This document shows, piece after piece, positions 2,300-62,031 of a stretch of DNA of 64,000 bases. The notes under the pieces are model-generated. The model was not told the origin of the DNA, searched no databases, and worked only from the letters and a program-made list of their open reading frames with translations. Made by a program: the position numbers and the translations under genes. The DNA comes from an uncultured Methylophilaceae bacterium (lineage in GTDB: Bacteria > Pseudomonadota > Gammaproteobacteria > Burkholderiales > Methylophilaceae): positions 3,282-67,281 of the forward strand of contig CAJQTF010000001.1 in assembly GCA_905618945.1 (NCBI GenBank), given 5' to 3'. Each line of letters begins with the position of its first letter. Within the stretch, counting starts at the first letter, position 1.

Positions 2300-2791
2300 T
2301 TAAACTTTTTTTTCAGCTTTCTTAGCTTCCTTTTTCTTAGTCGGTTTATCTTTTTTTTCCTCAGCAGTTACCGGCTTAATTTCTTTAGCTTTTGATGTTT
2401 TTGCTTCCTCAACCAACTCTGCCTTATCTTCTATTACGCGATCTACAAGCTCAATATAAGCCATTGGTGCATTATCGCCTTTACGGAAACCACACTTCAA
2501 TATTCTTGTATACCCGCCATTTCTTTTGCTGTATCTAGGGCCAATTTCACCGAACAATTTCACAACAATCTCTCTATCTCTTAACCGGCTAAATGCAAGA
2601 CGTTGATTATGCACACTTGAATCTCTTGCAAGAGTAATCAATGGTTCAGCAATTTTTCTCAATTCCTTTGCTTTTGGCAATGTAGTTCTAATAATTTCAT
2701 GCTTAAGCAATGAAGTCGCCATATTTTTAAACATTGCTTTTCTATGGCTACTTGTTCTATTAAGCTTTCTGTGATGTTTTCCGTGTCGCAT
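2300..2791 (-). CDS. rplQ: 50S ribosomal protein L17 with Lys/Glu-rich C-terminal extension
   Basis: [20 protein letters not shown]...GGYTRILK...[12 protein letters not shown]. Confidence 0.98.
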
Positions 2792-2815
2792 TTTATTACT
2801 CCATATTCTTTCTAG

Positions 2816-3805
2816 TTATACTGTTTTTTCTGCATCGGCTTCTGGCCAATTTTCAACAGGCATTCCTAATGACAGGCCTTTTGTGTTTAAAATATCTTTA
2901 ATCTCGTTTAATGATTTTCTTCCAAGATTAGGTGCTTTTAATAAATCGCTTTCATTTCTTTGAATAAGATCACCAATATAATGTATATTCTCTGCCTTTA
3001 AGCAATTAGCTGATCTTACAGTCAATTCAAGATCATCTACTGGCCTAAGAAGTATCGGATCTATTACTGGCGCTTGCTTAACTTCTACTTCAGTTAATTC
3101 ACTTTCCAAATTGGCAAATACAGACAATTGACCCATAAGAATTCTTGCTGCATCTCGAATTGCTTGCTCTGCGTCAACTACTCCATTTGTTTCTACGTCC
3201 ATTATTAATTTATCTAAATCCGTTCTTTGTTCAACACGGGCACTTTCAACTACATAACTAACCTTAGTAATGGGGCTAAAAGATGCATCGATCATAATAA
3301 AACCAAGCACATTATCACTTTCTGATCCTTTTGTCCTAACAGGTACAGGCTGATATCCTCTACCCATTTCTACTTTAGCTTCAATATTTAATTTTCCACC
3401 TTTATTCAAATGAGCAATTACATGATCTGGGTTTACAATCTCAACATCATGGCCAACCTCAAAATCTCCAGCAGTAACAGGGCCTTCTTCACTCTTATTT
3501 AACGTTATTGTAGCTTCAGTAGTATCATGCATTTTTAATGCTATCTTTTTGATATTAAGAAGGACATCTACAACATCTTCTTGAACACCATCTAGTGTTG
3601 AGTATTCATGAACAACCCCATCTATTTTAACTTGAGTAATTGCGAATCCTGGAATTGATGAAAGCAAAACTCTTCTAATAGAATTTCCTAATGTAAACCC
3701 AAATCCTCTCTCCATCGGTTCAAGAACAACCTTTGCTCTTTGCGGGCTAACTATATCTACATCAACAATTCTAGGTTTTAAATATTCTGTTGGGTTCATT
3801 TCCAT
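2816..3805 (-). CDS. rpoA: RNA polymerase alpha subunit
   Basis: [26 protein letters not shown]; [15 protein letters not shown]. Confidence 0.99.
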
Positions 3806-3839
3806 GAGTGGTGTCCTTTTTTGTTTTGTACTTAACTAA

Positions 3840-4469
3840 TTATTTAGAATAAAGCTCAACAACTAATGATTCGTTAATTGTTGCGGGTAGATCATCACGT
3901 TCAGGTTTATTTTTAAAAATTCCTTTAAAAGCTTTTATATCCACTTCTAACCATTCTGGAAAACCTCTTTCTTCAGCAGCTTCAAGTGCAGCTTTAATTC
4001 TTAATTGGTCTTTTGAGTGGCCATCAACAGAAACCTCATCTCCAGGTTTAACTTGGTAGGATGGTATATTAACTCGCTTACCATTCACAAGAATGCTATT
4101 GTGCTTTACAATTTGACGAGCCTCAGTTCTTGATGCCCCCATTCCCATTTTATAAGTTATATTGTCTAATCTACACTCAAGCAATTGAAGAAGGTTCTCA
4201 CCGGTTATGCCTTTTCTTCTATCTGCTTCAGCATAATATCCGCGGAACTGCTTTTCTAATATTCCATATATTCTTCTTAATTTTTGTTTTTCTCTTAGCT
4301 GAACACCATAATCAGATAGGCGAGATGCCCTTCTTTGACCGTGTTGTCCAGGTGGGTAATTTCTTTTATCTATTGCGCATTTGTCAGTGAAACATTTTTC
4401 ACCCTTAAGAAAAAGTTTTTCACCTTCTCTTCGACATTGACGACATTTTGGGTCAAGATTTCTAGCCAA
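3840..4469 (-). CDS. rpsD: 30S ribosomal protein S4 (four-Cys form, TTG start)
   Basis: [27 protein letters not shown]; position in alpha operon. Confidence 0.98.
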
Positions 4470-4506
4470 TTCTATTCTCCTATTAGTTTTTTCTGACTAA
4501 ACAAAA

Positions 4507-4896
4507 TTAAATTCTTCTCTTCTTTGGTGGTCTGCATCCGTTATGAGGTACCGGTGTAACATCTTGGATACTAGTAATTTTTAAACCTACTGCATTTAGA
4601 GCTCTTACAGAAGATTCTCTACCAGGGCCTGGTCCTTTAATTCTAACTTCAATATTTTTTACACCAAATTCTTGCGCCGCTTTACCAGCTGCCTCTGCTG
4701 CGACCTGAGCGGCAAAAGGTGTACTTTTTCTTGACCCCTTAAATCCGGCTCCGCCAGAAGTTGCCCATGATAGCGCATTTCCTTGACGATCGGTAATAGT
4801 AATAATAGTGTTATTAAATGAAGCATGGACATGTGCTATGCCCTCTACAACATTCTTTTTAACTTTCTTTTTTACTCTAATATTGTCTTTTGCCAT
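4507..4896 (-). CDS. rpsK: 30S ribosomal protein S11
   Basis: [34 protein letters not shown]. Confidence 0.99.
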
Positions 4897-4913
4897 TCTA
4901 TTTTTACCCTTTA

Positions 4914-5270
4914 TTATTTCCTAATTGCTCGGATAGGACCTTTTCTTGTTCTTGCATTATTTTTTGTATTTTGCCCTCTAACCGGCAAACCTCTACGATG
5001 CCTTACACCCCTATAACAACCAAGATCCATTAAGCGCTTAATGTTCATTGAAACTTCTCGTCGAAGGTCACCCTCAACAGTAAAATTATCTAATTGGCTC
5101 CTAAGCTTTTCAACATCAGACTCATTTAAATCCTTAAGTTTTGTTGTTGCTTCGATTCCAGCAGCAACACATATTTTTTTCGATGTTTCTCTACCAACAC
5201 CATAGATAGACGTTAACGCTATCACGGTATGCTTATTATCTGGTACATTTACTCCTGCAATACGGGCCAT
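4914..5270 (-). CDS. rpsM: 30S ribosomal protein S13
   Basis: MARIAGVN...[17 protein letters not shown]; start moved to ATG 5270 (GGAG 8 nt upstream). Confidence 0.98.
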
Positions 5271-5315
5271 ACACATTACTCCAATAAAAATGGCATTATT
5301 TCAATAAAGCCTTAA

Positions 5316-5344
5316 ATTATAACTATTTTTTACGCTCTTAACAA
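5316..5344 (-). promoter_or_regulatory. Putative sigma70 promoter of alpha operon (rpsM)
   Basis: TTGTTA-17 bp-TATAAT on minus strand between rpmJ and rpsM. Confidence 0.65.
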
Positions 5345-5350
5345 TGTAAA

Positions 5351-5473
5351 TTAATGACAAGCGCCTTGTCTTTGCTTATGACGTGGATCTTTGCAAATAA
5401 CTCTAACCACGCCTTTTCTTCGAATTACTTTGCAATTTCTACACAATGCTTTTACTGATGCTCTAACTCTCAT
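5351..5473 (-). CDS. rpmJ: 50S ribosomal protein L36 (40 aa)
   Basis: Too short for the ORF track. Manual translation [40 protein letters not shown]. Confidence 0.97.
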
Positions 5474-5502
5474 GATATTTCCTTAATTTCATATAGATAA
5501 GT

Positions 5503-5721
5503 TTATTTCTCTCTAAATGTTATTCTTCCTTTTGATAAGTCGTAAGGTGAAATTTCAACAGTTACTTTATCTCCAGGCAGGATTCTAATATAATTCATTC
5601 TCATCTTCCCTGAAATATAACCTAACACCTCATGTCCATTTTCTAATTTTACTTTAAAAGTTGCATTTGGAAGATTTTCTAAAACCTCTCCTTCCATTTC
5701 AAGTACATCTTCTTTTCCCAT
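5503..5721 (-). CDS. infA: Translation initiation factor IF-1
   Basis: [14 protein letters not shown]...[18 protein letters not shown]. Confidence 0.99.
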
Positions 5722-5724
5722 AAT

Positions 5725-7050
5725 CTACAGTCCCCCTCTTCCAGATTCTGACTTAAAGTTTGCCTTTTTTAGCAAGCCATCATACTGATAAGACATCATT
5801 CTAGACTGCACTTGCGTCATGAAATCCATCGTCACAATTACAATAATGAGAAGAGAAGTTCCACCAAAATAGAATGGTGTATTAAATTTAAGAATAAGAA
5901 ACTCAGGAACTAAACATACTCCAGCAATATATATTGCGCCTACAAGTGTTAGTCGCCCCACAATTGTATCTATATAACGTGCTGTTTGTTCTCCTGGCCT
6001 TATTCCTGGGACAAAGGCACCACTTTTCTTTAAGTTATCTGCTGTTTCAGTCGGGTTAAATGTAATCGCGGTATAAAAATATGCAAAAAAGATAATTGCT
6101 GTTGCAAATAATAATATATAGATAGGTTGTCCTGGTGAAATTGCTGCACTTAGGTCTTTCAACCAATACATACTTTGATTTGAACCAAACCACCCAGCTA
6201 TTGTTGCAGGAAAAAGAATGACACTAGAAGCAAAAATTGCAGGAATCACCCCTGCCTGATTTATTTTAAGTGGCAAATGCGAAGACTGGCCCCCAAACAT
6301 TTTATTTCCTACTTGTCTCTTGGCATAATTGATTGTAATTCTTCTCTGCCCTCTTTCTACATAAACAACTAATGCTGTCACAAGAACAACAGCTACTATA
6401 AGGAAGAATACTAAGGGGATAGAAAAGGCCCCCGTTCTTGTTAATTCAAGTGTGCTACCCAAAGCACTTGGCAATCCTGCAACAATGCCTGCCATAATAA
6501 TCATAGAAATACCATTTCCAATGCCACGCTCAGTTATTTGCTCCCCTAACCAAACTAAAAACATTGTGCCACTAACTAATGTAACAATAGCTGTCAATCT
6601 AAATAGTAACCCGGGGTCTAATACAAGGCCCGGTTGAGCCTCTAATGCAACACTTATTCCTAAAGCTTGAAAAGCTGCTAATACGACTGTGGCCTGTCTT
6701 GTATATGATGTTATAACTCTTTGACCTGCCTGGCCTTCTTTTTTAAGATCTTTTAATCTTGTGTTCATTGAGGTTAAAAGCGTCATAATAATTGACGCTG
6801 AAATATAAGGCATTATTCCAAGAGCAAACACAGTAAATCGGCTTAGAGCACCCCCTGAAAACATATTAAACATTCCAAGAATTCCACCACTTTGTGAATC
6901 GAAAAGCTTTCTTAATTCTATTGGATCAATTCCAGGAACAGGAATATGAGCACCCAAACGAAAAATAATTAATGCGCCAAGAAGAAAAAGTAAGCGACTT
7001 TTTAACTCACTCATTTGACCCAATCCACCAAGAGAATTATTCTGAGCCAA
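5725..7050 (-). CDS. secY: Preprotein translocase SecY (TTG start)
   Basis: [38 protein letters not shown]. Confidence 0.99.
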
Positions 7051-7054
7051 AAAA

Positions 7055-7639
7055 TTAATCCTTTTTCACTTCTGGTTCAGCTGCTGCTTTTTTCACTTCT
7101 GGTTCAGCTGCTGCTTTTTTTGGTACTTTTTTTACTGCTGCTGCTTTTTTTGCTGCCGTTTTCGCTGCTGCTGCTTTTTTTGCTGCTTCAACAACAGTCT
7201 CCTTAACTTCCACAACCTTTCCACCTGCAGATTCAATAGCTTTCTTCGCGCCTTCAGTCATGGAGATGCCCTGAATAGTAAATTTCTTTTTTACTTCGCC
7301 AGATAAATAAATTTTAGCAGTAAGGGTTATTTCGGATATCAAATTCGCTGCTTTCAAGCTGGATATGTCAACAATATCTGAATCTAATTTACCTAATTCA
7401 CTAGTTCTTATTTTTGCATTATACTTTTTAGTTAAAGATCGAAATCCTCTTTTTGGTAATCTTCTTTGAATTGGCATTTGTCCACCTTCAAATCCTACCT
7501 TATGAAATCCGCCTGTTCTAGATTTTTGCCCTTTAATTCCTCTTCCAGCTGTTTTTCCAAAACCAGAACCGTTTCCTCGCCCTACTCGACGAGCCGCTTT
7601 TGTTGAACCAACTGCTGGTTTAATTGTATTTAATTTCAT
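7055..7639 (-). CDS. rplO: 50S ribosomal protein L15 with Ala/Lys-rich C-terminal tail
   Basis: [31 protein letters not shown]. Confidence 0.98.
7062..7115. repeat. 2 exact 27-bp tandem copies in rplO tail (KKAAAEPEV)
   Basis: tttttcacttctggttcagctgctgct x2, adjacent to further degenerate KKAAA units. Confidence 0.95.
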
Positions 7640-7643
7640 TTTA

Positions 7644-7826
7644 TTAACTCTCTACTTTAAGCATAAAATTTACTGCATTAATCATCCCACGTACTTCAGG
7701 GGTATCTTGGAGCTCAACTGTATGATGCATTTTCTTTAATCCTAATCCAACAACAGTACCCTTTTGAGATGCTGTTCTTCCAATTAGACTTTTAATTAAT
7801 GTAACTTTAATCATTTCTTTAGCCAT
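7644..7826 (-). CDS. rpmD: 50S ribosomal protein L30
   Basis: [11 protein letters not shown]...GLGL...DTPEVRGMI. Confidence 0.97.
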
Positions 7827-7830
7827 AAAA

Positions 7831-8346: not shown

Positions 8347-8363
8347 CTTGATTCCTAAATTTG

Positions 8364-8717: not shown

Positions 8718-8727
8718 GATTCAACCT

Positions 8728-9261: not shown

Positions 9262-9270
9262 GACTTTCTC

Positions 9271-9985: not shown

Positions 9986-9986
9986 A

Positions 9987-10631
9987 TTATTTATCTCCCT
10001 GCTGGTTTTCTACTACTGGAGCTTCCTCAGCTGGCTGAACTTCCTCAGCTGGCTTTACTTCCTCAGCTGGCTTTACTTCCTCAGCTGGTTTGGCTTTGTT
10101 AAATGGAAAACTAAAGGCTGACAAAAGTGCACTCGCTTCATCATCAGTTTTAGCGGTAGTTGTAATTGTGATATTCATACCTCTTAATTTATCTATCTTG
10201 TCATATTGAATTTCTGGAAAAATTATTTGTTCCTTAATTCCAAAATTATAATTTCCTCTACCGTCAAATGATTTTAATGACAATCCTCGGAAATCTCTTT
10301 CTCTAGGGATAGCAATATTAATTAACCTATCTAGAAATGTGTACATACTAGACTTTCTTAAAGTTACTTTACAACCAACAGGGTAATCATCTCTAACCTT
10401 AAAATTTGCTATTGATTTTTTTGCTAAAGTAACAATTGGTTTCTGACCGGCTATTTTTTCCATGTCAGCGACAGCACTATCCATCACTTTTTTGTCAGCT
10501 ACAGCTTCACCAACACCCATATTTAATGTGATCTTAGTAACTCTTGGAACTTCCATTACTGAAGAATATTTAAACTGTTTTGTGAGTTCTTTTACAACAG
10601 TGTCAAAATAAAATTGTTTTAGTCTCGCCAT
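9987..10631 (-). CDS. rplE: 50S ribosomal protein L5 with acidic repeat tail
   Basis: [29 protein letters not shown]. Confidence 0.98.
10022..10093. repeat. 4 tandem 18-bp units in rplE tail ((K/Q)PAEEV)
   Basis: cttcctcagctggcttta, two exact and two variant copies. Confidence 0.95.
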
Positions 10632-11494: not shown

Positions 11495-11860
11495 TTAGGT
11501 TTCTATCCTTGCTTTAGAAACTACTTTAGTCACAACCCAAGACTTACTTTTTGATATAGGTTTATGCTCGGTAATTTGAACCACATCACCCTCATTAATC
11601 TCATTTTTCTCATCATGTGCATGAAATTTATTTGATTGATTGATATATTTACCATACAAAGGATGTTTCACCTTTCTTTCAACAAGCACAGTAATTGTTT
11701 TATCCATCTTATTACTTGTAACTTTTCCAGTTACTGTTCTCTCAATTTTTTTAGCTACGGCCTTAACAGGGGCGGCCTTAACAGGGGCGGCCTTAACAGG
11801 GGCTTTTTTAGCTACAGTTTTAACAGGAGTTTTTTTAGTTGTTTTAGATTTATCTTCCAT
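11495..11860 (-). CDS. rpsQ: 30S ribosomal protein S17 with Lys/Ala/Pro-rich N-terminal extension
   Basis: [14 protein letters not shown]...HPLYGK...PISKSK; ATG 11860 has a GGGTGA SD (alternative start 11878). Confidence 0.96.
11758..11802. repeat. 3 exact 15-bp tandem copies in rpsQ N-terminus (APVKA)
   Basis: cggccttaacagggg x3. Confidence 0.96.
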
Positions 11861-11880
11861 TTTTTCTTTATCACCCATAA

Positions 11881-12503: not shown

Positions 12504-13343
12504 TTATGCCCCATCTTTCTTAGATTCATCATTTACTTCTTTAGGCGTTTCCTCTAAAGCTACTTTTTTCTTTACTGCAACCTTAACTGTTTTCTTTTCT
12601 GTCACCCCGTCTGCTTTCTTCGAAACAGTTTTAACAGTTTTCTTCGGAGCCCCTTTAGGTTTATCTTCTATTTTTTGCTCTACTTCACTTTCATTAATAG
12701 TAACTTTTTTATTATCTTCAAATATCTCGCCTTTAAATACCCAAACTTTAATTCCAATAATACCGTAGGTTGTTTGAGCTCTAGCAACACCGTAATCTAT
12801 ATCAGCACGAAGTGTATGAAGAGGAACTCTTCCTTCTCTATACCATTCTGATCGAGCAATTTCAATTCCGTTTAATCTTCCAGCACTTTTAATTTTAATT
12901 CCCTGTGCTCCCAATCTCATTGCATTTTGCATAGCTCTTTTCATTGCTCTTCTGAACATAACTCTCTTTTCAAGTTGTTGAGCAATGCTCTGTGCAATTA
13001 ATGTGGCATCTATTTCTGGCTTTCTAACTTCCTCAATGTTTAATTGAACAGGTATTCCCATTAGCCCTTGAAGGCTGGAACGAAGAGTTTCAATATCTTC
13101 ACCTTTTTTCCCAATTACAATACCTGGGCGAGCACTATAAATTGTAATCTTTGCATTTTTAGCTGGACGTTCAATTATTATTTTACTCACAGCTGCATTG
13201 ATTAATTTTTTATTTAAGAACTCTCTGACTTTTATATCATTAAGTAATAGTGCAGAAAAGTTCTTTGAATTTGAGAACCATTTAGATGACCAGTTTTTTT
13301 TAATTGCTAATCGAAAACCAATTGGATTTACTTTTTGTCCCAT
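12504..13343 (-). CDS. rpsC: 30S ribosomal protein S3 with long charged C-terminal tail
   Basis: [35 protein letters not shown]. Confidence 0.99.
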
Positions 13344-14816: not shown

Positions 14817-15188
14817 CTATTCACCCGTAAAATTAATTTCTTGCCCAGCTTTAATACTCACATAGGCCTTTTTCCAGTCAGCTCTTTTACCCATAGTGTT
14901 CCGACTAGCTTTTTTTGTTTTACCTTTAACGTTTATTAGATTTACAGCTTTAACATCTACTTTAAACATCGTTTCAATTGCTTCTTTTACTTGAACTTTT
15001 GTTGCATTTTTTCTTACCTTAAAGATTACCTGATTAAGCTTATCTGCAACCATAGTTGCCTTCTCAGTGACGTGGGGAGATAAAACTGATTGTAGTGATT
15101 TATCAGCTACTTTTTTAACAGCTACTTTCTTCTCAGCTACTTTTTTAACAGCTACTTTCTTCTCAGCTACTTTTTTATCTTCACTCAC
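14817..15188 (-). CDS. rplW: 50S ribosomal protein L23 with repeat N-terminal extension (GTG start overlapping rplD stop)
   Basis: [22 protein letters not shown]. Confidence 0.97.
15103..15177. repeat. 2.5 exact 30-bp tandem copies (five 15-bp subunits) in rplW N-terminus ([10 protein letters not shown])
   Basis: tcagctacttttttaacagctactttcttc x2 plus a half copy. Confidence 0.95.
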
Positions 15189-16942: not shown

Positions 16943-18133
16943 CTATTCAATAACTTTTACCACCACACCAGAGCCAACGGTTCTTCCGCCTTCACGAATA
17001 GCAAATCGCAAACCTTCTTCCATAGCAATTGGGGCAATTAGTGTTCCAGTAATTGATACGTTATCTCCTGGCATTACCATTTCTGTTCCTTCTGGCAATT
17101 CAACTGCACCAGTTACATCTGTTGTTCTAAAGTAAAATTGTGGGCGATATCCATTAAAGAATGGAGTATGTCTTCCACCTTCGTCCTTACTTAAACAATA
17201 AATTTCTGCTGTGAATTTAGTATGTGGCTTTATTGAGCCTGGTTTACATAAAACCTGCCCACGCTCCACATCCTCACGAGCTGTTCCACGAAGTAACACA
17301 CCTACGTTATCTCCTGCTTGACCTTGATCAAGTAATTTACGGAACATTTCAACACCTGTACAAATTGTTTTTACCGTATCTTTTAAACCAACAATTTCAA
17401 TTTCTTCATTAATTTTCACAACCCCACGTTCAACACGCCCAGTCACTACAGTGCCTCGGCCTGAGATCGAGAACACATCTTCTACTGGCATTAAAAATGC
17501 ACCATCAATTGCTCTTACTGGTTCTGGGAAATAGCTATCTAACGCTTCAGCCAATTTAAGAATTGCTGGCTCACCTATATCTGACTGGTCACCTTCTAAT
17601 GCTTTAGTAGCAGAACCCATGATGATAGGAATATCATCCCCAGGGAAATCGTATTTACTAAGCAGTTCACGTACTTCCATCTCAACTAACTCAAGTAGCT
17701 CTTTATCATCTACCATATCGGCTTTATTCAAGAACACAACAATATGAGGCACACCCACTTGCCTTGCAAGTAGAATATGTTCGCGTGTTTGTGGCATTGG
17801 TCCGTCAGCGGCAGAACACACAAGTATTGCACCGTCCATTTGAGCGGCACCGGTAATCATATTCTTTACATAATCAGCATGGCCTGGACAGTCAACGTGA
17901 GCGTAATGGCGTTTATCTGTTTCATATTCAACGTGTGAAGTATTAATTGTTATACCACGTGCTTTTTCTTCTGGAGCTGAATCAATTTCAGCAAAGTTTT
18001 TTGCATCGCCACCGAACTTTTTAGTTAGTACAGTTGAGATTGCAGCTGTTAGTGTAGTTTTCCCATGATCAACGTGACCAATAGTGCCAACGTTAACATG
18101 TGGTTTGGTACGCTCAAATTTACCTTTAGCCAT
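16943..18133 (-). CDS. tuf: Elongation factor Tu (str-operon copy)
   Basis: [24 protein letters not shown]. Confidence 0.99.
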
Positions 18134-21253: not shown

Positions 21254-24200
21254 TTACTTAGTTGGCTCTTTAATCTCTAGATCTTTATCAACAGATTCTT
21301 GAATAGTTGAATTCTCATTCACCATTTCTGTTTCTGTTTTCTTGCTCTCGGCAGGTGGAGTAAATGCTTCTTCTGCTTTTTCTAAATTACTCATTTCCCC
21401 TTCTTTACCATCTACTAATCCATTCTTTGCATTCAATTTTGCATCAGCAACTTGTTTTCTATTGAGATGATACGCTAATCCAGTCCCTGCAGGAATTAAT
21501 CGACCAACTATTACATTCTCTTTTAACCCTCTTAAAGAATCTCTCTTTCCTAGAATCGCAGCTTCTGTTAAAACACGAGTGGTTTCTTGGAAAGATGCCG
21601 CAGAAATAAATGAATCTGTTGAAAGTGATGCTTTTGTAATACCTTTTAAAACAGCCTCAAATTCAGCTTCTTTTTTCTTATCAGCTTTCATAAGATCATT
21701 TACTTTAAATACCTCTGCGCGCTCAAGCTCTTCTCCATTAATAAATGATGTATCACCAGCTTTGGTAATCCTTACTCGTCTAAGCATTTGTCTTACTATA
21801 ACTTCAATATGCTTATCATTTATTTTCACCCCTTGTAATCTATATACATCTTGAACTTCATCAATGATGTATCTTGCAAGAGCCTCTCTACCTTGAAGCC
21901 TTAAAATATCGGCTGGGTCGGCTGGTCCATCAACAATAACCTCGCCCTTAGTAACTACCTGGCCATCATGCGCTGTTACATGTTTATCTTTAGGAATTAA
22001 AAATTCGCTAGCATTCCCATCAGAATCAGTAATAACCAAACGTTGCTTACCCTTTGTATCCTTACCAAAAGAAACTGTACCGGTATTCTCAGCTAAAACA
22101 CCAGCATCTTTAGGAGAGCGAGCCTCAAATAGTTCTGCTACTCTTGGCAAGCCACCAGTTATATCTCTAGTTTTAGAGGATTCCTGAGGGATTCTTGCTA
22201 TTATATCGCCTTTCTTAACTACTTGATTGTCTGTAACAGTAATGATGTAGCCCAGTTGGAATGTTACGTTAACTGAGTTCTCTGTATTATTTAATTTTAC
22301 TTCTTTACCTTTACTATCTAGTAATTTAATTTGTGGCCTTAGTCCTTTTGATTGGCCAACTTTTTGCTTAGATTCAGTAACAACAAGCGTTGACAATCCA
22401 GTAACATCATCTATTTGTTTAGCTACCGAAACGCCCTCAACAACATTCTCGAATTTTGCAACGCCATCATACTCAGAAATAATTGGTCTATTATGAGGGT
22501 CCCAAGTAGCCATTACCATTCCAGCCTTTACTACTTGTGCATCATTTGCTAATAAAGTTGCGCCGTAAGGAACTTTGTGTCGCTCTCGCTCTCTTGCAGA
22601 ATCATCTTCAATTATAAATTCACCATTTCTTGAGATAACCACTTTCTCACCATTTGCATTTGTAACCAATCTCATTGCTTGAAATCTCACCTTACCTGCA
22701 GATTTATTTTCAATCTGACTTACTGATGCAGCTCTTGATACAGCTCCACCAATATGGAATGTTCTCATAGTAAGTTGGGTTCCAGGCTCACCAATTGATT
22801 GCGCCGCTATAACCCCAACTGCTTCACCTTGGTTGATTAAATTACCTCGGCCAAGATCTCGCCCATAACATTTGGCACAAATGCCGTAACGTGTCTTACA
22901 AGTAAGTGCAGTTCTTACAGTAACCTCATCTATCCCAAGGACTTCAATTTTTTCAACTTCATCTTCGCCTAAAAGAATACCTGCATTATAAAGAATCTCT
23001 TGTGTCTCTGGATTTATTATATCGAATGCAGAAACTCTACCTAGAATTCTATCGCTCAGTGGCGTAACTGTCTCACCGCCTTTAACTAATGCCTTGGTTA
23101 AAAGGCCATCCTCTGTTTCACAATCAAGCTCTGTAACTACAAGATCCTGGGTTACATCGACTAATCTTCTTGTTAAATAGCCAGAATTTGCTGTTTTAAG
23201 AGCGGTATCTGCTAAGCCTTTCCGTGCCCCATGAGTAGATATAAAGTATTGTAGAACATTTAATCCGTCACGAAAGTTTGCTGTAATTGGAGTCTCAATA
23301 ATTGAACCATCTGGTCTAGCCATTAAGCCTCGCATTCCTGCCAGCTGTCTAACTTGGGCTGCAGATCCCCTAGCACCTGAATCAGCCATCATATAGATAG
23401 CATTGAATGATTCCTGACGCATTGGGTTTCCTTTCTCGTCATTCACGGGTTTCCCATCTACATCGATTACTGGCTCATCTTGCAATTGTTTCATCATTGC
23501 ATCAGCTACTTTATCGCCGGTACGGCCCCATATATCTACTACTTTATTATATCTCTCACCTTGGGTAACAAGTCCAGAAGAATATTGGTCTTCGATTTCT
23601 TGTACCTCGGACCTTGCATCTTCCAGTAATTGTTCTTTTTCGGCTGGTATCTTCATGTCGTGAACAGAAATAGACATTCCCGCTTTTGTAGCATACTTAT
23701 AGCCCATATTTTTCAAGTTATCTGCAAGAATTACTGTATCGCGAATTCCTATTTTTCTAAATCCAACATTAATAAGATTTGATATTTCTTTTTTCTTTAG
23801 GCTTTTATTAATTAAATCAAAGGATAGCCCAGCTGGTAAAATTTCTGACAATAAAGCCCTACCTACAGTTGTTTCATATCTGTTAACTTTTAAAGTAGTA
23901 CTATTATCAAAATTCATTTCATATTCATTAATTCTAACTGTAGCCCTAGCGTGCAGATCTACATTACCATTATCATAAGCACGTCTTGCTTCGTCAACAT
24001 CGGCAAATTTCATACCTTCACCTTTTGCTGCAATTTTCTCTCTAGTTAAATAATAGAGTCCTAAAACAATATCTTGTGATGGCACAATAATAGGCTCGCC
24101 ATTTGCAGGAGATAAAATATTGTTAGATGCTAACATCAGCGTTCTCGCTTCCATTTGAGCCTCGAGAGATAATGGAACATGAACAGCCATTTGGTCGCCA

Positions 24201-32263: not shown

Positions 32264-32878
32264 TTAAACTTCTTTTTCTATCTGTCCAAATTCAAGTTCT
32301 ACAGGTGTAGCTCGTCCAAATATTACAACCGATACACGAAGTTTGCTTTTTTCATAATCAATCGTGTCTACCGTGCCAGAAAAATCTTTAAAAGGGCCGT
32401 CAACAACTCTTATTGACTCACCTACCTCAAAAGTTAATTTTTGAGTTGGGTTTACTTTACTATCGTCCATTTTTTGTAAAATAATCTCGACTTCTTTGTT
32501 TGTTATAGGTGCTGGCTTTGTACCACTTCCCCCAATGAATGCTGTCACTTTAGGGTTGCTTTTTACTAAATGCCAACTATCGTCATTCATTTCCATTTGC
32601 ACCAATACATATCCAGGGTAAAGTCTTCTCTCAGTTACTTTCTTTTGTCCTGATTTCATTTCAACTACTTCTTCGACTGGAACTAATATTTCACCAAATT
32701 GATCACTGATTTTAGACTGAGCAATACGCTCTAATAGTCCTTTTTGTACAATTTTTTCATATCCTGAAAACGCTTGCACTGCATACCAACGTTTTGACAT
32801 TAAAGCATTAACTGTTTTATCAGTTTGGTCAGTTTGGTCAGTTTGGTCAGTTTGGTCAGTTTGGTTCAATATATCCAT
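32264..32878 (-). CDS. nusG: Transcription factor NusG with (QTD)5 N-terminal extension
   Basis: WYAVQAFSGYE, YPGYVLV, KOW domain, IFGRATPVEL; TAATG overlap with secE and GAGGT SD support start 32878. Confidence 0.97.
   Translation of the reverse strand: MDILNQTDQTDQTDQTDQTDKTVNALMSKRWYAVQAFSGYEKIVQKGLLERIAQSKISDQFGEILVPVEEVVEMKSGQKKVTERRLYPGYVLVQMEMNDDSWHLVKSNPKVTAFIGGSGTKPAPITNKEVEIILQKMDDSKVNPTQKLTFEVGESIRVVDGPFKDFSGTVDTIDYEKSKLRVSVVIFGRATPVELEFGQIEKEV
32820..32864. repeat. 5 exact 9-bp tandem copies in nusG 5' end (QTD)
   Basis: tcagtttgg x5. Confidence 0.97.
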
Positions 32879-33335: not shown

Positions 33336-34553
33336 ATCTCTATTCAATAACTTTTACCACCACACCAGAGCCAACGGTTCTTCCGCCTTCACGAATAGCA
33401 AATCGCAAACCTTCTTCCATAGCAATTGGGGCAATTAGTGTTCCAGTAATTGATACGTTATCTCCTGGCATTACCATTTCTGTTCCTTCTGGCAATTCAA
33501 CTGCACCAGTTACATCTGTTGTTCTAAAGTAAAATTGTGGGCGATATCCATTAAAGAATGGAGTATGTCTTCCACCTTCGTCCTTACTTAAACAATAAAT
33601 TTCTGCTGTGAATTTAGTATGTGGCTTTATTGAGCCTGGTTTACATAAAACCTGCCCACGCTCCACATCCTCACGAGCTGTTCCACGAAGTAACACACCT
33701 ACGTTATCTCCTGCTTGACCTTGATCAAGTAATTTACGGAACATTTCAACACCTGTACAAATTGTTTTTACCGTATCTTTTAAACCAACAATTTCAATTT
33801 CTTCATTAATTTTCACAACCCCACGTTCAACACGCCCAGTCACTACAGTGCCTCGGCCTGAGATCGAGAACACATCTTCTACTGGCATTAAAAATGCACC
33901 ATCAATTGCTCTTACTGGTTCTGGGAAATAGCTATCTAACGCTTCAGCCAATTTAAGAATTGCTGGCTCACCTATATCTGACTGGTCACCTTCTAATGCT
34001 TTAGTAGCAGAACCCATGATGATAGGAATATCATCCCCAGGGAAATCGTATTTACTAAGCAGTTCACGTACTTCCATCTCAACTAACTCAAGTAGCTCTT
34101 TATCATCTACCATATCGGCTTTATTCAAGAACACAACAATATGAGGCACACCCACTTGCCTTGCAAGTAGAATATGTTCGCGTGTTTGTGGCATTGGTCC
34201 GTCAGCGGCAGAACACACAAGTATTGCACCGTCCATTTGAGCGGCACCGGTAATCATATTCTTTACATAATCAGCATGGCCTGGACAGTCAACGTGAGCG
34301 TAATGGCGTTTATCTGTTTCATATTCAACGTGTGAAGTATTAATTGTTATACCACGTGCTTTTTCTTCTGGAGCTGAATCAATTTCAGCAAAGTTTTTTG
34401 CATCGCCACCGAACTTTTTAGTTAGTACAGTTGAGATTGCAGCTGTTAGTGTAGTTTTCCCATGATCAACGTGACCAATAGTGCCAACGTTAACATGTGG
34501 TTTGGTACGCTCAAATTTACCTTTAGCCATAATATATTGTCCTTAAAATTACT
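33336..34553. repeat. About 1.2-kb direct repeat of 16939..18156 (tuf plus flanks)
   Basis: Identical protein and shadow ORF; identity extends 23 bp upstream and 4 bp downstream of the CDS. Confidence 0.9.
33340..34530 (-). CDS. tuf: Elongation factor Tu (tRNA-operon copy)
   Basis: Protein identical to 16943..18133. Confidence 0.99.
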
Positions 34554-35072: not shown

Positions 35073-35453
35073 TTATTTTACTAAGCTTAAATAAGGTTGT
35101 TTAGTTTTTTTTCCTATATTTTTTATGTCTTTTTGAGTCATATTTTTATTAACTTCAAAAAATAAACCTTCGCCATTTTCCTTACTATAAATGCCTGATA
35201 TTGATTCCATAGGAAGAAAGATATCTTGATTTTTTCCATTAAAACGTGCTGAAAAAGATATAAAATCATTATCAAAAATTAATTTATTTGTAGATTCTAA
35301 TGATAAATTTAAAACAATCTCGTTAGATTTAATATGATTTACTGGAACTTTTACTCCAGAAATAATTTTAGCCACTACGTAAGGAGTAAATTTTGAATCT
35401 GTGCACCAATCATAAATACTCCTAATCAGATAAGGCTTAGTGCTTAAGACCAT
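35073..35453 (-). CDS. sspB: ClpXP adaptor SspB
   Basis: STKPYLIRSIYDWC.D..FTPY, FSARFNG, C-terminal YLSLVK (XB-like). Confidence 0.95.
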   Translation of the reverse strand: MVLSTKPYLIRSIYDWCTDSKFTPYVVAKIISGVKVPVNHIKSNEIVLNLSLESTNKLIFDNDFISFSARFNGKNQDIFLPMESISGIYSKENGEGLFFEVNKNMTQKDIKNIGKKTKQPYLSLVK

Positions 35454-39468: not shown

Positions 39469-39684
39469 TTATTTATATTTCTTTTTAATTTCTTTTTCAA
39501 TATTTTTTAATTCTTTGAATTTACTTTCTCGTTCTAATTCTTTCTTAATATCTGAAATAAAAATTTTAACTTTTTTTGTTATTTTTCCTGCCCCTCTTGC
39601 TAGCATGGGAATATTATTTGGTGACACAAATAATATTATCGATAAAAAAATTATAATTAATTCTGCGATTGAAATATCAAACAT
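39469..39684 (-). CDS. tatB: TatB (short, 71 aa)
   Basis: MFDISIAEL, TM and amphipathic helix; lies between tatA and tatC. Confidence 0.88.
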   Translation of the reverse strand: MFDISIAELIIIFLSIILFVSPNNIPMLARGAGKITKKVKIFISDIKKELERESKFKELKNIEKEIKKKYK

Positions 39685-39702
39685 AATTATTTTTTTATAG
39701 CT

Positions 39703-39870
39703 CTACTTCTTAGCTTTCTTTTTACTTACATTTTTTTTGGGGTTTCTCATACCTTCTTTAAAGCTTTTAACAGCTGATCCTAAATCCCCTCCTATGTTTC
39801 TAAGCTTTCCGGCACCAAAAACAATTAAAACTACTAATAAAATTAATAACCATTCTTTTATTCCAGGCAT
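39703..39870 (-). CDS. tatA: TatA (55 aa)
   Basis: Missed by the ORF track. Manual translation [55 protein letters not shown]. Confidence 0.95.
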
Positions 39871-56543: not shown

Positions 56544-56609
56544 AAAATATACGCATTAATTATATAAATAAATGACAGCTTAGGCTAATTTAAGTTGCAT
56601 GTTGGTTGG

Positions 56610-57233: not shown

Positions 57234-57323
57234 TAGGGCTCCGAAGTTAATTCCTTAAGGGGCTACATTTTAACTAAAATAAGCACAACGTGATAGCATT
57301 AACTCAAGACTAAAGGGGAAAAA

Positions 57324-57962
57324 ATGGCTTTTTTACAAAATGCTAGATTTGTTATTTCAGTAAATCACTTTGATGAACTTCCTATTGATGAAGGAATTGA
57401 AATTGCATTTGCTGGAAGATCAAATGCTGGAAAATCAAGCGCAATAAACTCTTTAAGCAAACAAAATCGTCTTGCTTATGTCAGTAAACAGCCTGGTAGA
57501 ACGCAATTAATAAACTTTTTTAGTATTGGCGAGCATATGTCATTAGTTGATCTTCCTGGTTATGGTTATGCAAAAGTCCCTGGTGCCATTAAAGATCATT
57601 GGGTAAAAACGTTACCTCGATACCTTCAAGAAAGGAATAGCTTAGCTGGGCTTGTTATTGTTATGGATATAAGAAGACCCTTAACTAAACTAGATACTCA
57701 AATGCTTAATTGGTTTGCTCCGAGACAAAAACCGATTCATATTTTGCTTACGAAATCTGATAAGTTATCAAAAGATAAATCGCTTAGAGCTCTTTCTGAT
57801 GTTAAGAAAATAGTTCAAACCCAATGGGCTGATTCGTTCCACACAAATTTTACTGTTCAGCTATTTTCTAGTTTAAAAAAACAAGGGCTTGAAGAAGCAG
57901 ATGAAATTATTCAAAGTTGGTTAGCTCTTAATAAAAATCATATCCCAAACTTGGTGTCCTAA
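57324..57962 (+). CDS. engB: GTP-binding protein EngB/YihA
   Basis: GRSNAGKSS, PGRTQLINFF, DLPGYGY, TKSD. Confidence 0.97.
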   Translation: MAFLQNARFVISVNHFDELPIDEGIEIAFAGRSNAGKSSAINSLSKQNRLAYVSKQPGRTQLINFFSIGEHMSLVDLPGYGYAKVPGAIKDHWVKTLPRYLQERNSLAGLVIVMDIRRPLTKLDTQMLNWFAPRQKPIHILLTKSDKLSKDKSLRALSDVKKIVQTQWADSFHTNFTVQLFSSLKKQGLEEADEIIQSWLALNKNHIPNLVS

Positions 57963-58598
57963 GTTAACCCCTCGATTTTCATACTTAGTTTTAGGCCTAT
58001 ATGAGGGTTTTTTTGAAAAATCAATATTTTTAGCTTTATACATTGAATTGTTCTTAAATATTTCTATAATCCAATTGGCATAATCTTCCCAATCTGTCGC
58101 TATATGAATATAGCCTTCTTTTTTTAATTTCATGCTTATTAATTCCAAAAAAGTCTGCTGTATCAATCTTCTTTTATTGTGGCGTTTCTTATGCCATGGG
58201 TCTGGGAAAAAAATATGAATGGCATCAATGCTTTCATCTAGGGTCATTTTTTCTAAAACTTCCACCGCATCATGCTGAATAATTTTTAGATTTTTTAGAT
58301 TTTTTTCTTGTATTTTATTTAAAAGATTTCCAACCCCTGGGGAATGGACATCGATTGCAATGAAATTAGAATCACTTAGAGTTTCAGCAATTTCAGCAGT
58401 TGTATGTCCCATGCCAAAACCTATTTCAATAATTCTTTTTCCTTGGCGATTAAAAATAGCATCCCAGTTCAAAATATTATCTCCAAAAGAAATAGCATGG
58501 AGCGGGGAAAGTGACTTAATACCTTCTGCTTGATGTTTAGTAAGACGTCCCTGTCTAAGCACATAACTTCTAATAGGTCTAATTTTTGATATAGGCAT
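57921..58598 (-). CDS. trmB: tRNA (guanine-N7)-methyltransferase
   Basis: IRSYVLRQGR, EIGFGMG, FFPDPWHKKRHNKRR, ATDWEDYA. Confidence 0.97.
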   Translation of the reverse strand: MPISKIRPIRSYVLRQGRLTKHQAEGIKSLSPLHAISFGDNILNWDAIFNRQGKRIIEIGFGMGHTTAEIAETLSDSNFIAIDVHSPGVGNLLNKIQEKNLKNLKIIQHDAVEVLEKMTLDESIDAIHIFFPDPWHKKRHNKRRLIQQTFLELISMKLKKEGYIHIATDWEDYANWIIEIFKNNSMYKAKNIDFSKKPSYRPKTKYENRGVNLGHQVWDMIFIKS

Positions 58599-58660
58599 TA
58601 AGTTGGCAAATTATTCATATTCATAGATTATAATAACCTTAAATAATATTTAAACTGAAA

Positions 58661-59410
58661 ATGAATAAAAAAAAACAAGTTGCAATAATTACTGGTGGGG
58701 CTAAAAGAGTTGGCGCAGCAATATGCCGAAAGCTCCATAAAGCCAATATTGACTTAATTATCCATTATAAAAACTCTAGAACTGAAGCAAACTCACTTCA
58801 AAAACAATTAAACAAGATTAGAAAAGGCTCTGCCTCAATAATCCAAGCAGATCTTTTAGATCCAAATAGTTACTCCTTGATTATTAATGAGGCAATTAAG
58901 ATTTATGGGCAATTAGATTTTCTAATTAATAATGCTTCATCCTATTATCCTACCAATATAAATGATATCAATGAAGCGAACTGGGATGAACTTATTGGGA
59001 GCAACCTTAAAGCATCTCTTTTCTTATCTAAAGAAGCTAGTCCTTTTTTAAAAAAATCTAATGGCTCCATAATTAATATTACTGATGCACATATTACAAA
59101 TCCTAAGAAGAACTACATTATATATTCAGTTGCAAAATCAGGATTGACAGCCTTAACTAAATCACTTGCGCAAGAACTTGGTCCCGAAATCAGAGTTAAT
59201 GCTGTTGCACCTGGACCTGTTTTATGGCCAGATAAATTAAATGAATTTGACACGCAATACCGCAAAAAAGTTATTTCACAAACTATGCTTAAAAAAGTTG
59301 GTGACGCAGATGATATTGCCAAAGCAGTTGAGTTCTTATTATTAAATGCGCCTTTTATTACTAGCCATATTTTAAATGTCGATGGTGGTAGGTCTTTCAA
59401 TAGCGAATAA
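58661..59410 (+). CDS. Pteridine reductase (FolM/PTR1-like SDR)
   Basis: TGGAKRVG, NNAS, NITD, YSVAK, VNAVAPG. Confidence 0.88.
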   Translation: MNKKKQVAIITGGAKRVGAAICRKLHKANIDLIIHYKNSRTEANSLQKQLNKIRKGSASIIQADLLDPNSYSLIINEAIKIYGQLDFLINNASSYYPTNINDINEANWDELIGSNLKASLFLSKEASPFLKKSNGSIINITDAHITNPKKNYIIYSVAKSGLTALTKSLAQELGPEIRVNAVAPGPVLWPDKLNEFDTQYRKKVISQTMLKKVGDADDIAKAVEFLLLNAPFITSHILNVDGGRSFNSE

Positions 59411-59535
59411 AAAATGACGATAAATGCCGCCAATCTCCTACAAGCATTTTACATTTTATCTTTGATTTAACTTGAATAGTTTGAATTTTATCCTTATGAT
59501 GCATAATTTTTACTGGTGCAAAAGTTAAAAACACA

Positions 59536-62031
59536 ATGACAAAACTACTGATAGTTGAATCCCCGTCTAAAGCAAAAACATTATCAAAGTATTTGGGGAG
59601 TGATTTTGTGGTTCTAGCATCGTATGGGCATATAAGAAACCTGCTTCCAAAATCAGAAGGTATCGATACAGAAAGTTTTGAAATGAAATATGCTCTGATT
59701 GATAGAAATAAAAAGCATATGGACGCAATCACAAAAGCAGTAAAAAAATCTGATGAGGTACTCTTAGCAACTGATCCTGATAGAGAGGGCGAGGCAATAG
59801 CATGGCACATTGCTGAAATCTTAAATGAAAAAAAATTACTAAAAAATAAATTAGTAAAAAGAGTGGTATTCCAGGAGATTACAAAATCCGCAATTATTCA
59901 AGCAATTGAAGAGCCAAGGGATATAGCCTTAGCATTAGTAAGGGCGCAACAGTCAAGACAAGCTTTAGATTATCTAATAGGGTTTAATTTATCCCCTTTG
60001 CTGTGGTCAAAAATACGTTATGGTCTTTCTGCTGGTCGAGTTCAAAGCCCTGCACTAAGGTTAATAATGGAACGTGAAGCAGAAATTGAAAAATTTCTAG
60101 CAAAAGAATATTGGACTTTACATCTAGAAGCAAAAAAAAATCAGTCCCAATTCTCTTCGAAATTATACATTTTAGATAATAAGAAAGTAGAGCAGTTTAC
60201 AGTTAATGAAAAAAAACAAAGTGAAAAAATTGTTGGTGAATTACTTTTAAAAAGTGGAGGAAAAACTAGAGTTTCAAGAGTTGATAAAAAACAAAGGATT
60301 AGAAACCCTTCGGCACCATTTACAACATCTACACTTCAGCAACAAGCCGTAAGAAAACTTGGCTTTACAACTAAAAGAACTATGATCGTTGCACAGAAAT
60401 TATATGAAGGTATTGATACAGGAAATGAAACAGTTGGACTTATTTCATACATGCGAACTGATTCAATGACGCTGTCAAATGATGTAATCCAGCAAATAAG
60501 AGAATATATAAAAAGTAATTATGATTTAACGTATCTTCCACAAATTGCTATTGGCTACAAAACAAAAGCAAAAAATGCTCAGGAGGCTCATGAAGCCATA
60601 AGGCCTACAGATATAAGTAGAACTCCTGCAAACTTAAAAAAATATTTGAGTGATGAACAGTTCAAACTTTATGAAATGATTTGGCAAAGAACACTATCTT
60701 GTCAAATGACTCCAGCTATATTTGATGCAGTTAGTGTCGACCTTGAAGTTGGGAAAGGGGAAAGTATTTTTAGGGCATCTGGCCAAACCTTAAAGTTTTC
60801 AGGTTTTATGTCAGTTTATATGGAAGATGAAGATGAGCACTCTGATGAAAAAGAAAAATCATCAACGCTGCCGCCCTTAGAAGTTGGTGAAATTTTGAAT
60901 ATTGAAAAAATAAAGGGTGACCAACACTTTACAGAGCCACCTCCAAGATATTCCGAGGCAAGTCTTGTTAAGACTTTAGAAGAACATGGAATTGGTAGGC
61001 CCTCTACTTACTCAAGTATTATTTCGACACTACAAGATAGAGAATACGTTCTACTTGAAAAAAAACGATTCATGCCAACCGATGTTGGTAAGGTTGTGAA
61101 TGATTTCTTAACTGAGCACTTTAGCCATTATGTAGACTATGATTTCACTGCTCAATTAGAATCTCAATTAGACGATATTGCAGCTGATAAAAAAGAATGG
61201 TTATCCGTGTTAGCTAATTTTTGGAAAGATTTTAATCATCAAATTAATGAGAAGAAAGATCTAGACCGCTCTAAAATAACCCAAAAATCTATTGATGAAG
61301 ATTGTCCAAAGTGCAGCAAACCATTACTTTCTAAACTTGGTAAAAGAGGAAATTTTATAGCATGCTCTGGGTATCCAGATTGTGATTTTACAAGAAGTTC
61401 AAATGGAGACCTCCCACAAGAACCAAAAATAATAGCTATTGAAAAAGAAACAAAGAAAAACGTAATATTGTTAATAGGGCCTTATGGTCCTTATCTTCAA
61501 TTAGGTGAACAAGATGAAGATAAGAAAATTAAGCCAAAAAGAATAACCATCCCAAGCGAAATAGCATTAGCAGACCTTAATGAAGAAATTGCTTTAAAAT
61601 TAATATCACTACCAAGAGATTTAGGTGAGCATCCTGAGACTGGTAAAAAAATTATTGCAAATATTGGTAGATTTGGTCCTTATGTAAATCATAATGGAAA
61701 GTTTAAATCTATACCAAAAGATGAAGACTTATTTAAGGTTTCTTTAGAAAAAGCTATTGACCTCCTCAAACCGATCAGAAAAATTGGAGATGATCCTGAT
61801 AATAAAGGATCTATTGATATTTATAAAGGTAGGTTTGGCTTTTATATTCAAAGAGGCACAATAAAAGTAAATATTGCTAAAGATGTTGATCTGGAATCGA
61901 TTAGTCTAGAAAAATCTTTAAGTTTATTATCGAAAAAAGAAATAGAAGAAGAAGGTAAGAAGAAGAAACCAGCGAAGAAGAAACCAGCGAAGAAGAAACC
62001 AGCGAAGAAGAAACCAGCGAAGAAGAGTTGA
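59536..62031 (+). CDS. topA: DNA topoisomerase I
   Basis: IVESPSK, ATDPDREGE, SAGRVQS, ISYMRTDS (catalytic Tyr), GIGRPSTY. Confidence 0.98.
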   Translation: MTKLLIVESPSKAKTLSKYLGSDFVVLASYGHIRNLLPKSEGIDTESFEMKYALIDRNKKHMDAITKAVKKSDEVLLATDPDREGEAIAWHIAEILNEKKLLKNKLVKRVVFQEITKSAIIQAIEEPRDIALALVRAQQSRQALDYLIGFNLSPLLWSKIRYGLSAGRVQSPALRLIMEREAEIEKFLAKEYWTLHLEAKKNQSQFSSKLYILDNKKVEQFTVNEKKQSEKIVGELLLKSGGKTRVSRVDKKQRIRNPSAPFTTSTLQQQAVRKLGFTTKRTMIVAQKLYEGIDTGNETVGLISYMRTDSMTLSNDVIQQIREYIKSNYDLTYLPQIAIGYKTKAKNAQEAHEAIRPTDISRTPANLKKYLSDEQFKLYEMIWQRTLSCQMTPAIFDAVSVDLEVGKGESIFRASGQTLKFSGFMSVYMEDEDEHSDEKEKSSTLPPLEVGEILNIEKIKGDQHFTEPPPRYSEASLVKTLEEHGIGRPSTYSSIISTLQDREYVLLEKKRFMPTDVGKVVNDFLTEHFSHYVDYDFTAQLESQLDDIAADKKEWLSVLANFWKDFNHQINEKKDLDRSKITQKSIDEDCPKCSKPLLSKLGKRGNFIACSGYPDCDFTRSSNGDLPQEPKIIAIEKETKKNVILLIGPYGPYLQLGEQDEDKKIKPKRITIPSEIALADLNEEIALKLISLPRDLGEHPETGKKIIANIGRFGPYVNHNGKFKSIPKDEDLFKVSLEKAIDLLKPIRKIGDDPDNKGSIDIYKGRFGFYIQRGTIKVNIAKDVDLESISLEKSLSLLSKKEIEEEGKKKKPAKKKPAKKKPAKKKPAKKS
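61960..62019 (+). repeat. 4 exact 15-bp tandem copies in topA tail (KKKPA)
   Basis: aagaagaaaccagcg x4. Confidence 0.97.

Follow-up and report, generated by a model that had tools for sequence, protein, structure and literature searches.

Eight core proteins encoded on a 64,000-nucleotide stretch of DNA from an uncultured bacterium of the family Methylophilaceae (hereafter the window, G000:C1:3282-67281) carry low-complexity extensions at one terminus, which we call tails. They comprise the ribosomal proteins bL17, uL15, uL5, uS17, uS3 and uL23 (below without prefixes) as well as NusG and TopA, and in six of them the tail is encoded by an in-frame DNA tandem array. An earlier note on this DNA had counted nine such proteins, including the beta' subunit of RNA polymerase, whose extension is marginal. 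The tails lie outside the conserved domains, are enriched in ribosomal proteins, differ in their repeat units from species to species and were gained stepwise. We favour, with reasonable but far from complete confidence, the interpretation that they are translated disordered extensions which slippage would remodel and which selection would filter and in part preserve; the basic ones among them would bind polyanions.

The genome studied (G000; 999 kb in 32 contigs, 77.6% complete, 33-35% guanine plus cytosine, GC) is represented in the window by the alpha, spc, S10 and str operons, rpoBC, the L11/L10 cluster, secE-nusG, a his/tat block and topA, with spacers between genes often of only a few bp (1-11 bp in the table of open reading frames, ORFs), as had been noted before. 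Since the nearest public records are marine Methylophilaceae and the stretch is also present in marine or seawater metagenomes of 18 studies, we regard G000 as an OM43-type streamlined methylotroph. Strain LSUCC0401, whose closed genome (G010) has 1,307,234 bp, belongs to the same GTDB genus (g1). For comparison we used the ribosomal operons of 80 betaproteobacterial genomes, 20 g1 species and three genomes of g39, a streamlined genus from fresh water. Repeats were called with Tandem Repeats Finder, window genes being screened at an array score of at least 60. Genome-wide, 1024 ORFs called in G000 were tested for low-entropy segments, with hydrophobic (membrane) segments set aside. Metagenome evidence was taken from Logan contigs of 200-500 bp from four runs.

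All six arrays described in the earlier note, with periods of 27, 18, 15, 30, 9 and 15 bp, were recovered in frame at their positions. The features described in this paragraph lie on the minus strand, except for those of TopA, which lie on the plus strand. The C-terminal tail of L15 (7055..7204; residues ~146-194, Lys/Ala-rich, net charge +7) has an exact array at its end (7062-7120; 27 bp x2.2, 100% match). In L5 the C-terminal tail (9987..10097; residues ~179-214, net charge -5) is acidic and reads KPAEEV four times, encoded by an 18-bp unit in 3.7 copies with 95% match (10022-10088). Two ribosomal proteins are extended at the N-terminus: S17 by a Lys/Ala/Pro/Val-rich tail (11744..11878; residues 1-45, net charge +10) with a 15-bp array of 3.1 copies and 100% match (11758-11803), and L23 by residues 1-30 (15099..15188; net charge +6), in which a motif (10 protein letters, not shown) is present five times; its array (15103-15177; 30 bp x2.5, 100% match) sits right behind the conserved first residues in alignment A1. 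NusG has an N-terminal extension of 26 codons (32801..32878; net charge -5) including (QTD)5, encoded by a 9-bp array of 5.1 copies with 100% match (32820-32865). In TopA the translation matches the Pfam domains Toprim, Topoisom_bac, Zn_ribbon_Top1 and Toprim_C_rpt, followed at the C-terminus by a basic tail with (KKKPA)x4 (61930..62031; net charge +13; array 61959-62026, 15 bp x4.5, 100% match). The remaining C-terminal tails contain no repeat in G000: that of L17 (2300..2431; residues ~121-163, net charge +4) is Lys/Glu-rich and comprises 43 amino acids (aa), the Pfam domain ending at residue 116, and that of S3 (12504..12719; residues ~209-279, 71 aa, net charge +4) is of mixed charge. The last ~69 aa of beta' (21254..21463) are acidic with a net charge of -5 and likewise free of repeats; at 1444 residues its open frame exceeds the 1421-1424 of large-genome relatives by ~20 aa, which makes it the weakest of the nine members.

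Pfam confirmed the identity of the eight proteins tested (all but beta'), and every tail falls outside its domain. Full lengths in G000 are 163 aa for L17 (127 in E. coli), 194 for L15 (144), 214 for L5 (179), 127 for S17 (84), 279 for S3 (233), 123 for L23 (100) and 204 for NusG (181). Beyond the six array carriers no window gene contained an array scoring at least 60, which includes the metabolic and envelope genes, previously reported as free of such repeats. From the ORF table we estimate a chance of ~0.005 that six randomly placed arrays would all hit genes for ribosomal proteins, RNA polymerase, NusG or TopA, which cover ~42% of the window.

The tails are not uniform in charge. Clearly basic are those of L15 (+7, 29% Lys), S17 (+10, 31% Lys), L23 (+6, 37% Lys) and TopA (+13, 52% Lys). 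The tails of L17 and S3 are polyampholytes with 14-21% Glu, and acidic tails are found on L5, NusG and beta' and, elsewhere in G000, on L19 and L25 (each -14). The description as histone-H1-like, which had been applied to all nine, thus clearly suits L15, S17, L23 and TopA, fewer than half of them; measured by ~30% Lys or more with Ala/Pro, a clear net positive charge and short tandem units, L17 and S3 are borderline, and L5, NusG and beta' fall outside. In most tails of ribosomal proteins Lys, Ala and Glu together make up 48-79% of the residues, and Pro, Val and Thr are also common; the L23 tail lacks Pro. Tail GC equals or exceeds core GC, with values of up to 0.49-0.53 (L5 and L19; core 0.33), and thereby runs opposite to the AT bias of the genome.

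We then considered whether the repeats are artefacts of assembly or annotation or untranslated spacers. With lengths of 46-108 bp the arrays are shorter than a sequencing read, and the same tails, built from different units, recur in independently assembled genomes including closed ones, in frame and placed between conserved starts or stops and the Pfam cores. The L15 array is reproduced by a metagenome contig. In G000 the ancestral start Met of S17 is lost, so translation of S17 must start upstream, and past the tail neither the S17 nor the L23 core has another start codon. Set against this, assemblies of relatives often break at the repeats, and nothing comparable to the NusG extension is seen in the relatives. 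Taken together, an artefact has a practically negligible probability. In the relatives, short-read assemblies repeatedly break or show runs of N at or near the arrays of L5, L23, L19 and DksA (start of G012:C12, ends of G002:C7 and C24, end of G015:C5, and G002:C34, G021:C1, G023:C1 and G016:C1).

The start of NusG deserves separate mention. All 20 g1 relatives open at MSKRWY or MTKRWY, directly or at most 7 codons past a stop, and in seven relatives read as DNA there is no gap between the secE stop and the nusG start ATG, which adjoin or overlap. In G000 the upstream ATG keeps this ancestral TAATG context together with the GAGGT Shine-Dalgarno sequence, and 78 in-frame bases come after it. 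The sequence context therefore suggests that the extension is likely translated; an untranslated spacer is disfavoured because the upstream start is retained and an open reading frame runs through the insert into nusG.

For L23 we inspected one AlphaFold2 model, calculated from an alignment of 21 sequences. Residues 1-30, which the model shows as an isolated helix, have a predicted local distance difference test score (pLDDT) of 47-51, and the core reaches 67-84. The model is consistent with a flexible appendage, and no more.

In order to see how far the pattern extends beyond the window, the low-entropy scan was applied to the whole genome. Hydrophilic low-entropy segments were found in nine ribosomal proteins (L17, L15, L5, S17, L23, S6, S16, L19 and L25) and in 13 of the ~970-990 other ORFs. 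This corresponds to an odds ratio of 15-26 (Fisher test, p 5e-7 to 8e-9, for any plausible number of ribosomal genes) and bears out the enrichment in translation genes that the earlier note had proposed to look for by a proteome scan. Besides translation, the strong enrichment extends to proteins of transcription and DNA topology. Again, the Pfam domains of the ribosomal carriers stop before or start after the tails. Universal cases among the 13 other ORFs are GroEL (GGM), DnaJ (G/F), the AccB linker and TolA; the remaining ones include NusG, TopA, RNase E, DksA, FtsY and DnaK. Outside the window, tails are located on S6 ((KEPA)x7; G000:C5:13140-13652), S16 (Lys/Ala, then Ala/Glu; G000:C10:46645-47034), L19 ((PAAEAA)n; G000:C10:48287-48862), L25 ((EGE)n; G000:C17:2069-2776), the C-terminus of RNase E ((TKKASP)x6; G000:C23:14507-16795) and the N-terminus of FtsY (27-bp units; G000:C8:284-1348). 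RNase E measures 738-781 aa in the streamlined genera versus 926 aa in a 2.6-Mb relative. DksA has an N-terminal Lys/Ala/Pro/Val repeat tail (G000:C11:19049-19588; relatives L316-L336) of ~40-140 aa with units such as AKPAAKKAV in up to ~12 copies.

Orthologues from streamlined and non-streamlined Methylophilaceae were compared, as the earlier note had suggested: the window tails are mostly reduced or absent in larger-genome relatives, and the tail load rises from large-genome Methylophilaceae through freshwater g39 to marine g1. The L17 tail measures 8-9 aa in large-genome Methylophilaceae, 15 in g39 and 27-86 in g1; the S3 tail 28-38, 57 and 66-101 aa, respectively; the L19 tail 27 aa in g39 and 29-82 in g1 (50 in G000). 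Per 100 kb of ribosomal operon we counted 11.5 in-frame arrays in g1, as compared with 2.3 in other betaproteobacteria and 0.3 in the remaining Methylophilaceae, and none was found in 74 kb of g39 operons. Within this trend the tails differ in age. TopA ends in a Lys-rich tail in every sampled member of the genus and order with a recovered gene end, with a unit that varies by species (KKKPA, KKKAV, KKKST, KKKTA, K6). Tails of L17, S3, L19, L25, TopA and DksA are present in all 20+ g1 species, L19 and L25 being acidic throughout the genus. Those of L5, S17 and L23 are restricted within g1 to a subclade of six species (G000, G003, G012, G015, G002 and G021), where the arrays consist of species-own units in 3-10 copies: L5 only in G000, G021, G015 and G003, each with its own unit; S17 with other units in the five species besides G000; L23 with 5-10 units of other sequence in G003, G015 and G012. 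No L5, S17 or L23 tail was found in g39 or the large-genome Methylophilaceae sampled, save one on S17 in the metagenome-assembled genome L015, and the other g1 members with a complete L5 gene end, as well as the betaproteobacterial comparison loci, continue for only 1-2 residues past the L5 core. The L15 tail occurs in four g1 species (G000 49 aa, G002 30 aa with a different unit, G022 22 aa, G018 12 aa), most of the genus having 0-3 aa, and is absent from the large-genome Methylophilaceae and g39 loci examined. The NusG extension is confined to G000 and absent from the g1 relatives and large-genome Methylophilaceae examined. Among 41 Methylophilaceae genera the Lys/Ala/Pro tail of DksA is found in g1 and g39 only; in the other 38 with DksA the matches start at the conserved core. 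Tails are thus order-wide in TopA, genus-wide in L17, S3 and L19, limited to the subclade in L5, S17 and L23 and to G000 in NusG. These different ranges indicate that they were gained stepwise and not as one coordinated set.

Similar extensions occur elsewhere. The unrelated Methylophilaceae genome L015 has gained its S17 N-terminal Lys/Ala tail of ~55 aa independently. In several lineages of other betaproteobacteria (L030-L064) L15 is extended by 70-97 aa and S3 by 90-111 aa, mostly without exact DNA repeats.

Next, we assessed the turnover of the arrays. All periods are multiples of three: 9, 15, 18, 27 or 30 bp in G000, and between 12 and 60 bp among its relatives. In most arrays the copies match one another at 93-100% identity, whereas the unit and its number of repetitions vary from one species to the next. 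Most g1 species build their L17 tail from an own array of 27-30 bp; G010 and G020 have a 27-bp unit in common, with 4.7 versus 8.7 copies. Synonymous divergence (dS) of the cores between G000 and its subclade relatives is 0.6-1.5. Near-identical copies at this divergence imply that the arrays are younger than the species, though tails persist at those positions, a signature of repeated contraction and re-expansion by concerted evolution. Two metagenome contigs span the L15 array: X2 record 22 is longer by exactly 27 bases, one unit, and the independent X3 record 28 has the reference length, which is weak evidence for polymorphism within populations. Of the copy-number variation that the earlier note had proposed to look for, the variation between species is therefore well documented and that within populations is suggested by a single contig. 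On/off phase variation as in contingency loci was ruled out, as all units are multiples of three and a change in copy number alters length only.

Since such arrays could reflect the mismatch repair background, we searched for its components. Among genomes with a completeness of at least 90%, none of 11 from g1 and none of 10 from g39 gave a match to MutS (PF00488, MutS_V), which was present in 98 of 98 genomes from 26 other Methylophilaceae genera; g27, a genus with a single genome (92% complete), had no MutS match either. MutL (PF01119) was not found in the four streamlined genomes tested (G000, G010, G015 and G094). The DksA tail shares this distribution. Loss of repair was rejected as a sufficient cause, because g39 also lacks a MutS match and has no arrays in its operons; it is a possible contributing factor, in a comparison that comprises a single lineage. 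In E. coli, MutS is not known to act on loops as large as 9-30 nt.

How, then, did the tails arise, and why are they kept? One explanation takes them as neutral by-products: altered repair and slippage-prone A-rich sequence would make arrays everywhere, and these would persist at exposed termini of abundant nucleic-acid-associated proteins, where they do no harm, without any function. That no MutS or MutL was found in G000, closed g1 genomes and g39 fits this, as do the limitation of young tails to a subclade or one genome, the lack of conservation of the units, the charge of either sign and an evolution of tails ~10x faster than that of cores. Yet g39 lacks MutS and has no arrays in its ribosomal operons, and loops of the size of these units should escape MutS anyway. 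Tail length stays similar through a core dS of ~1 in genomes that have lost roughly half of their genes, and the high tail GC (up to 0.53) opposes the mutational trend. Moreover, the ratio of non-synonymous to synonymous substitution rates (dN/dS) of alignable, non-repetitive tails is below 1, namely 0.27-0.45 for S3 and 0.43-0.47 for L17 as compared with 0.02-0.05 for cores. These sequence comparisons indicate relaxed but still purifying selection, and the argument that costly tails on abundant proteins may be selected thereby receives weak backing. Altogether we consider a purely neutral origin possible but doubtful. At the other extreme stands a coordinated, slippage-tunable disordered coat of ribosomes and transcription complexes, selected in a streamlined cell and serving the roles suggested in the earlier note (ribosome-nucleoid partitioning, transcription-translation coupling or starvation protection), with copy number as a contingency switch. 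Stepwise accumulation along the streamlining lineage, the joint presence of basic and acidic tails on one particle and the copy-number differences between species and in one metagenome contig could be read in this way. However, individual tails date from different times and are spread over different sets of species without co-inheritance, units in multiples of three permit no on/off switching, and similar tails are found in many unrelated non-streamlined bacteria (betaproteobacterial L15 and S3 tails of 70-110 aa; PMC6821194), all of which makes such a coat very unlikely. A related proposal is that the minisatellite-encoded basic and acidic tails on at least 10 ribosomal proteins and on DksA, TopA and RNase E reflect selection, in the marine genus and above all in the subclade with G000, for an altered surface of ribosome and nucleoid, acquired along with streamlining and the move to sea water, with array length polymorphic in natural populations and tuning the surface charge. 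We regard this as improbable, if a little less so than the coat; were it true, we would be looking at the rare case of a streamlined cell that spends ~3-5% more ribosomal protein on a physical property.

The interpretation we prefer, slippage combined with selective filtering, lies between these positions. Replication slippage would create the tails and keep remodelling them by gain or loss of whole in-frame units, acting at the very ends of those genes whose products have solvent-exposed termini. In the marine OM43-type genus this would have been unusually productive and have led to a stepwise build-up on at least 10 ribosomal proteins as well as TopA, RNase E, DksA, FtsY and NusG. Selection would mainly filter composition and length, so that only soluble tracts of Lys, Ala, Pro, Glu, Thr and Val survive, and older tails would be held at about constant length. 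The basic tails (L15, S17, L23, TopA, RNase E and DksA) most likely serve as non-specific electrostatic arms on RNA or DNA, by analogy with actinobacterial TopA, for which this was shown experimentally. The acidic ones (L5, L19, L25, NusG and beta') could not bind in this way and may be modifiers of surface charge or tolerated passengers. Several points weigh against this interpretation. Tails of opposite charge stand side by side, so that one biophysical role does not account for all of them. Selection may have had too little time to act on the most recent tails (NusG in G000; L5, S17 and L23 in the subclade). The dN/dS values given above are biased downward on low-complexity alignments and come from short tails of 40-71 codons. 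What we know of the tails here derives from sequence and one predicted structure, that of L23, and the correlation between streamlining and tails is effectively one observation, made in a single lineage.

Low-complexity tails as such have been described in bacteria before. Ntountoumi et al. (2019, Nucleic Acids Res, PMC6821194) analyzed more than 1500 proteomes and found low-complexity regions to be frequent in ribosomal proteins, most often in S2, S16 and L25 and also in S3, S6, L3, L10, L17, L19, L21 and L31. TopA, GroEL, TonB and FtsY were among the annotations richest in such regions and RNase E activity among the enriched Gene Ontology terms; the regions are rich in Ala, Glu and Lys, Lys-rich tracts were tied to nucleic-acid binding, and function was argued from cost. 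G000 shares with this set the terminal Ala/Glu/Lys-rich tracts on S16, L25, S3, S6, L17 and L19, and its tails agree with the described class both in their low-entropy position outside the domain and in their composition. It differs in that L5, L15, L23, S17 and NusG are not named there, that ~10 ribosomal proteins of one 1.3-Mb genome are tailed, and that many of the tails are exact DNA minisatellites with a species-specific unit. G000 is therefore an unusually gene-rich, dense and well-resolved example of a known phenomenon. Our literature search returned nothing on low-complexity ribosomal proteins of OM43 and nothing relevant on a lysine-rich or basic N-terminal tail of DksA, and the main text of two comparative papers on Methylophilaceae streamlining mentions neither mutS nor ribosomal tails.

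For individual carriers there are closer parallels. According to the citation of Strzalka et al. (2017) in PMC6821194, lysine repeats of Streptomyces TopA bind DNA, stabilise the enzyme-DNA complex and raise processivity. The type IA topoisomerase of G000 likewise ends in tandem short Lys-rich repeats; unlike the actinobacterial enzyme as cited there, its tail is ~25-30 aa long, follows the zinc ribbon and Toprim_C_rpt, is order-wide in these betaproteobacteria and is known here from the gene. PAKKA-type tails are known on AlgP (PMC9239181) and Mycobacterium smegmatis Ku (PMC3553676). The Lys/Ala/Pro repeats of TopA, RNase E, DksA, FtsY, L15 and S17 resemble these tails and that of HupB, whereas the carriers in G000 are mostly ribosomal and include the Pro-free L23, the mixed L17 and S3 and the acidic L5, L19, L25, NusG and beta'. 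Histone-H1-like extensions were also reported on mosquito RpL23a (uL23) and RpS6 (eS6) (Hernandez and Fallon 2007, cited in PMC11764897), so that a Lys-rich low-complexity extension has evolved independently on the same family, uL23. In contrast to the tails of G000, the mosquito ribosomes are eukaryotic and cytoplasmic, common descent does not apply, and the work as cited there gives no evidence of minisatellite turnover.

Some further observations concern neighboring or similar genes. A stand-alone ORF of 55 aa outside the window (G000:C16:11085-11252, plus strand) begins with a short segment, after which come (KKKPA/V)-type repeats of the same Lys/Ala/Pro kind as in AlgP, Ku and HupB. It is preceded by a GGGGA ribosome-binding site 8 nt upstream and followed by a hairpin and T-run terminator, and is kept in G021 (92% identity) and G015; comparable repeats lie in a 126-aa frame of g39. 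Judged from its sequence it is a candidate for a small H1-like nucleoid or RNA-binding protein. In the window, TatA (55 aa) and TatB (71 aa; 39469-39870) and SspB (126 aa; 35073-35453) are trimmed, as reported before; the E. coli proteins have 89, 171 and 165 aa. Disordered regions are thus cut in some proteins while gained in others. Two ORFs of 396 aa (16943-18133 and 33340-34530) are probable duplicate tuf genes (EF-Tu), an ordinary kind of duplication at which assemblies often break.

Because the repeats break short-read assemblies, tails of core proteins are probably under-reported, truncated or missed in metagenome-assembled genomes. Low-complexity tails of bacterial ribosomal proteins are known but unexplained, and the Methylophilaceae give a clean natural series: almost none in large-genome sediment relatives, few in freshwater g39, many in marine g1 and more in one subclade. 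As some g1 members have closed genomes, the retention of tails by selection and the binding of rRNA, mRNA or DNA by the basic tails become testable, and so does the pace at which coding minisatellites are renewed in a bacterium that gave no MutS or MutL match.

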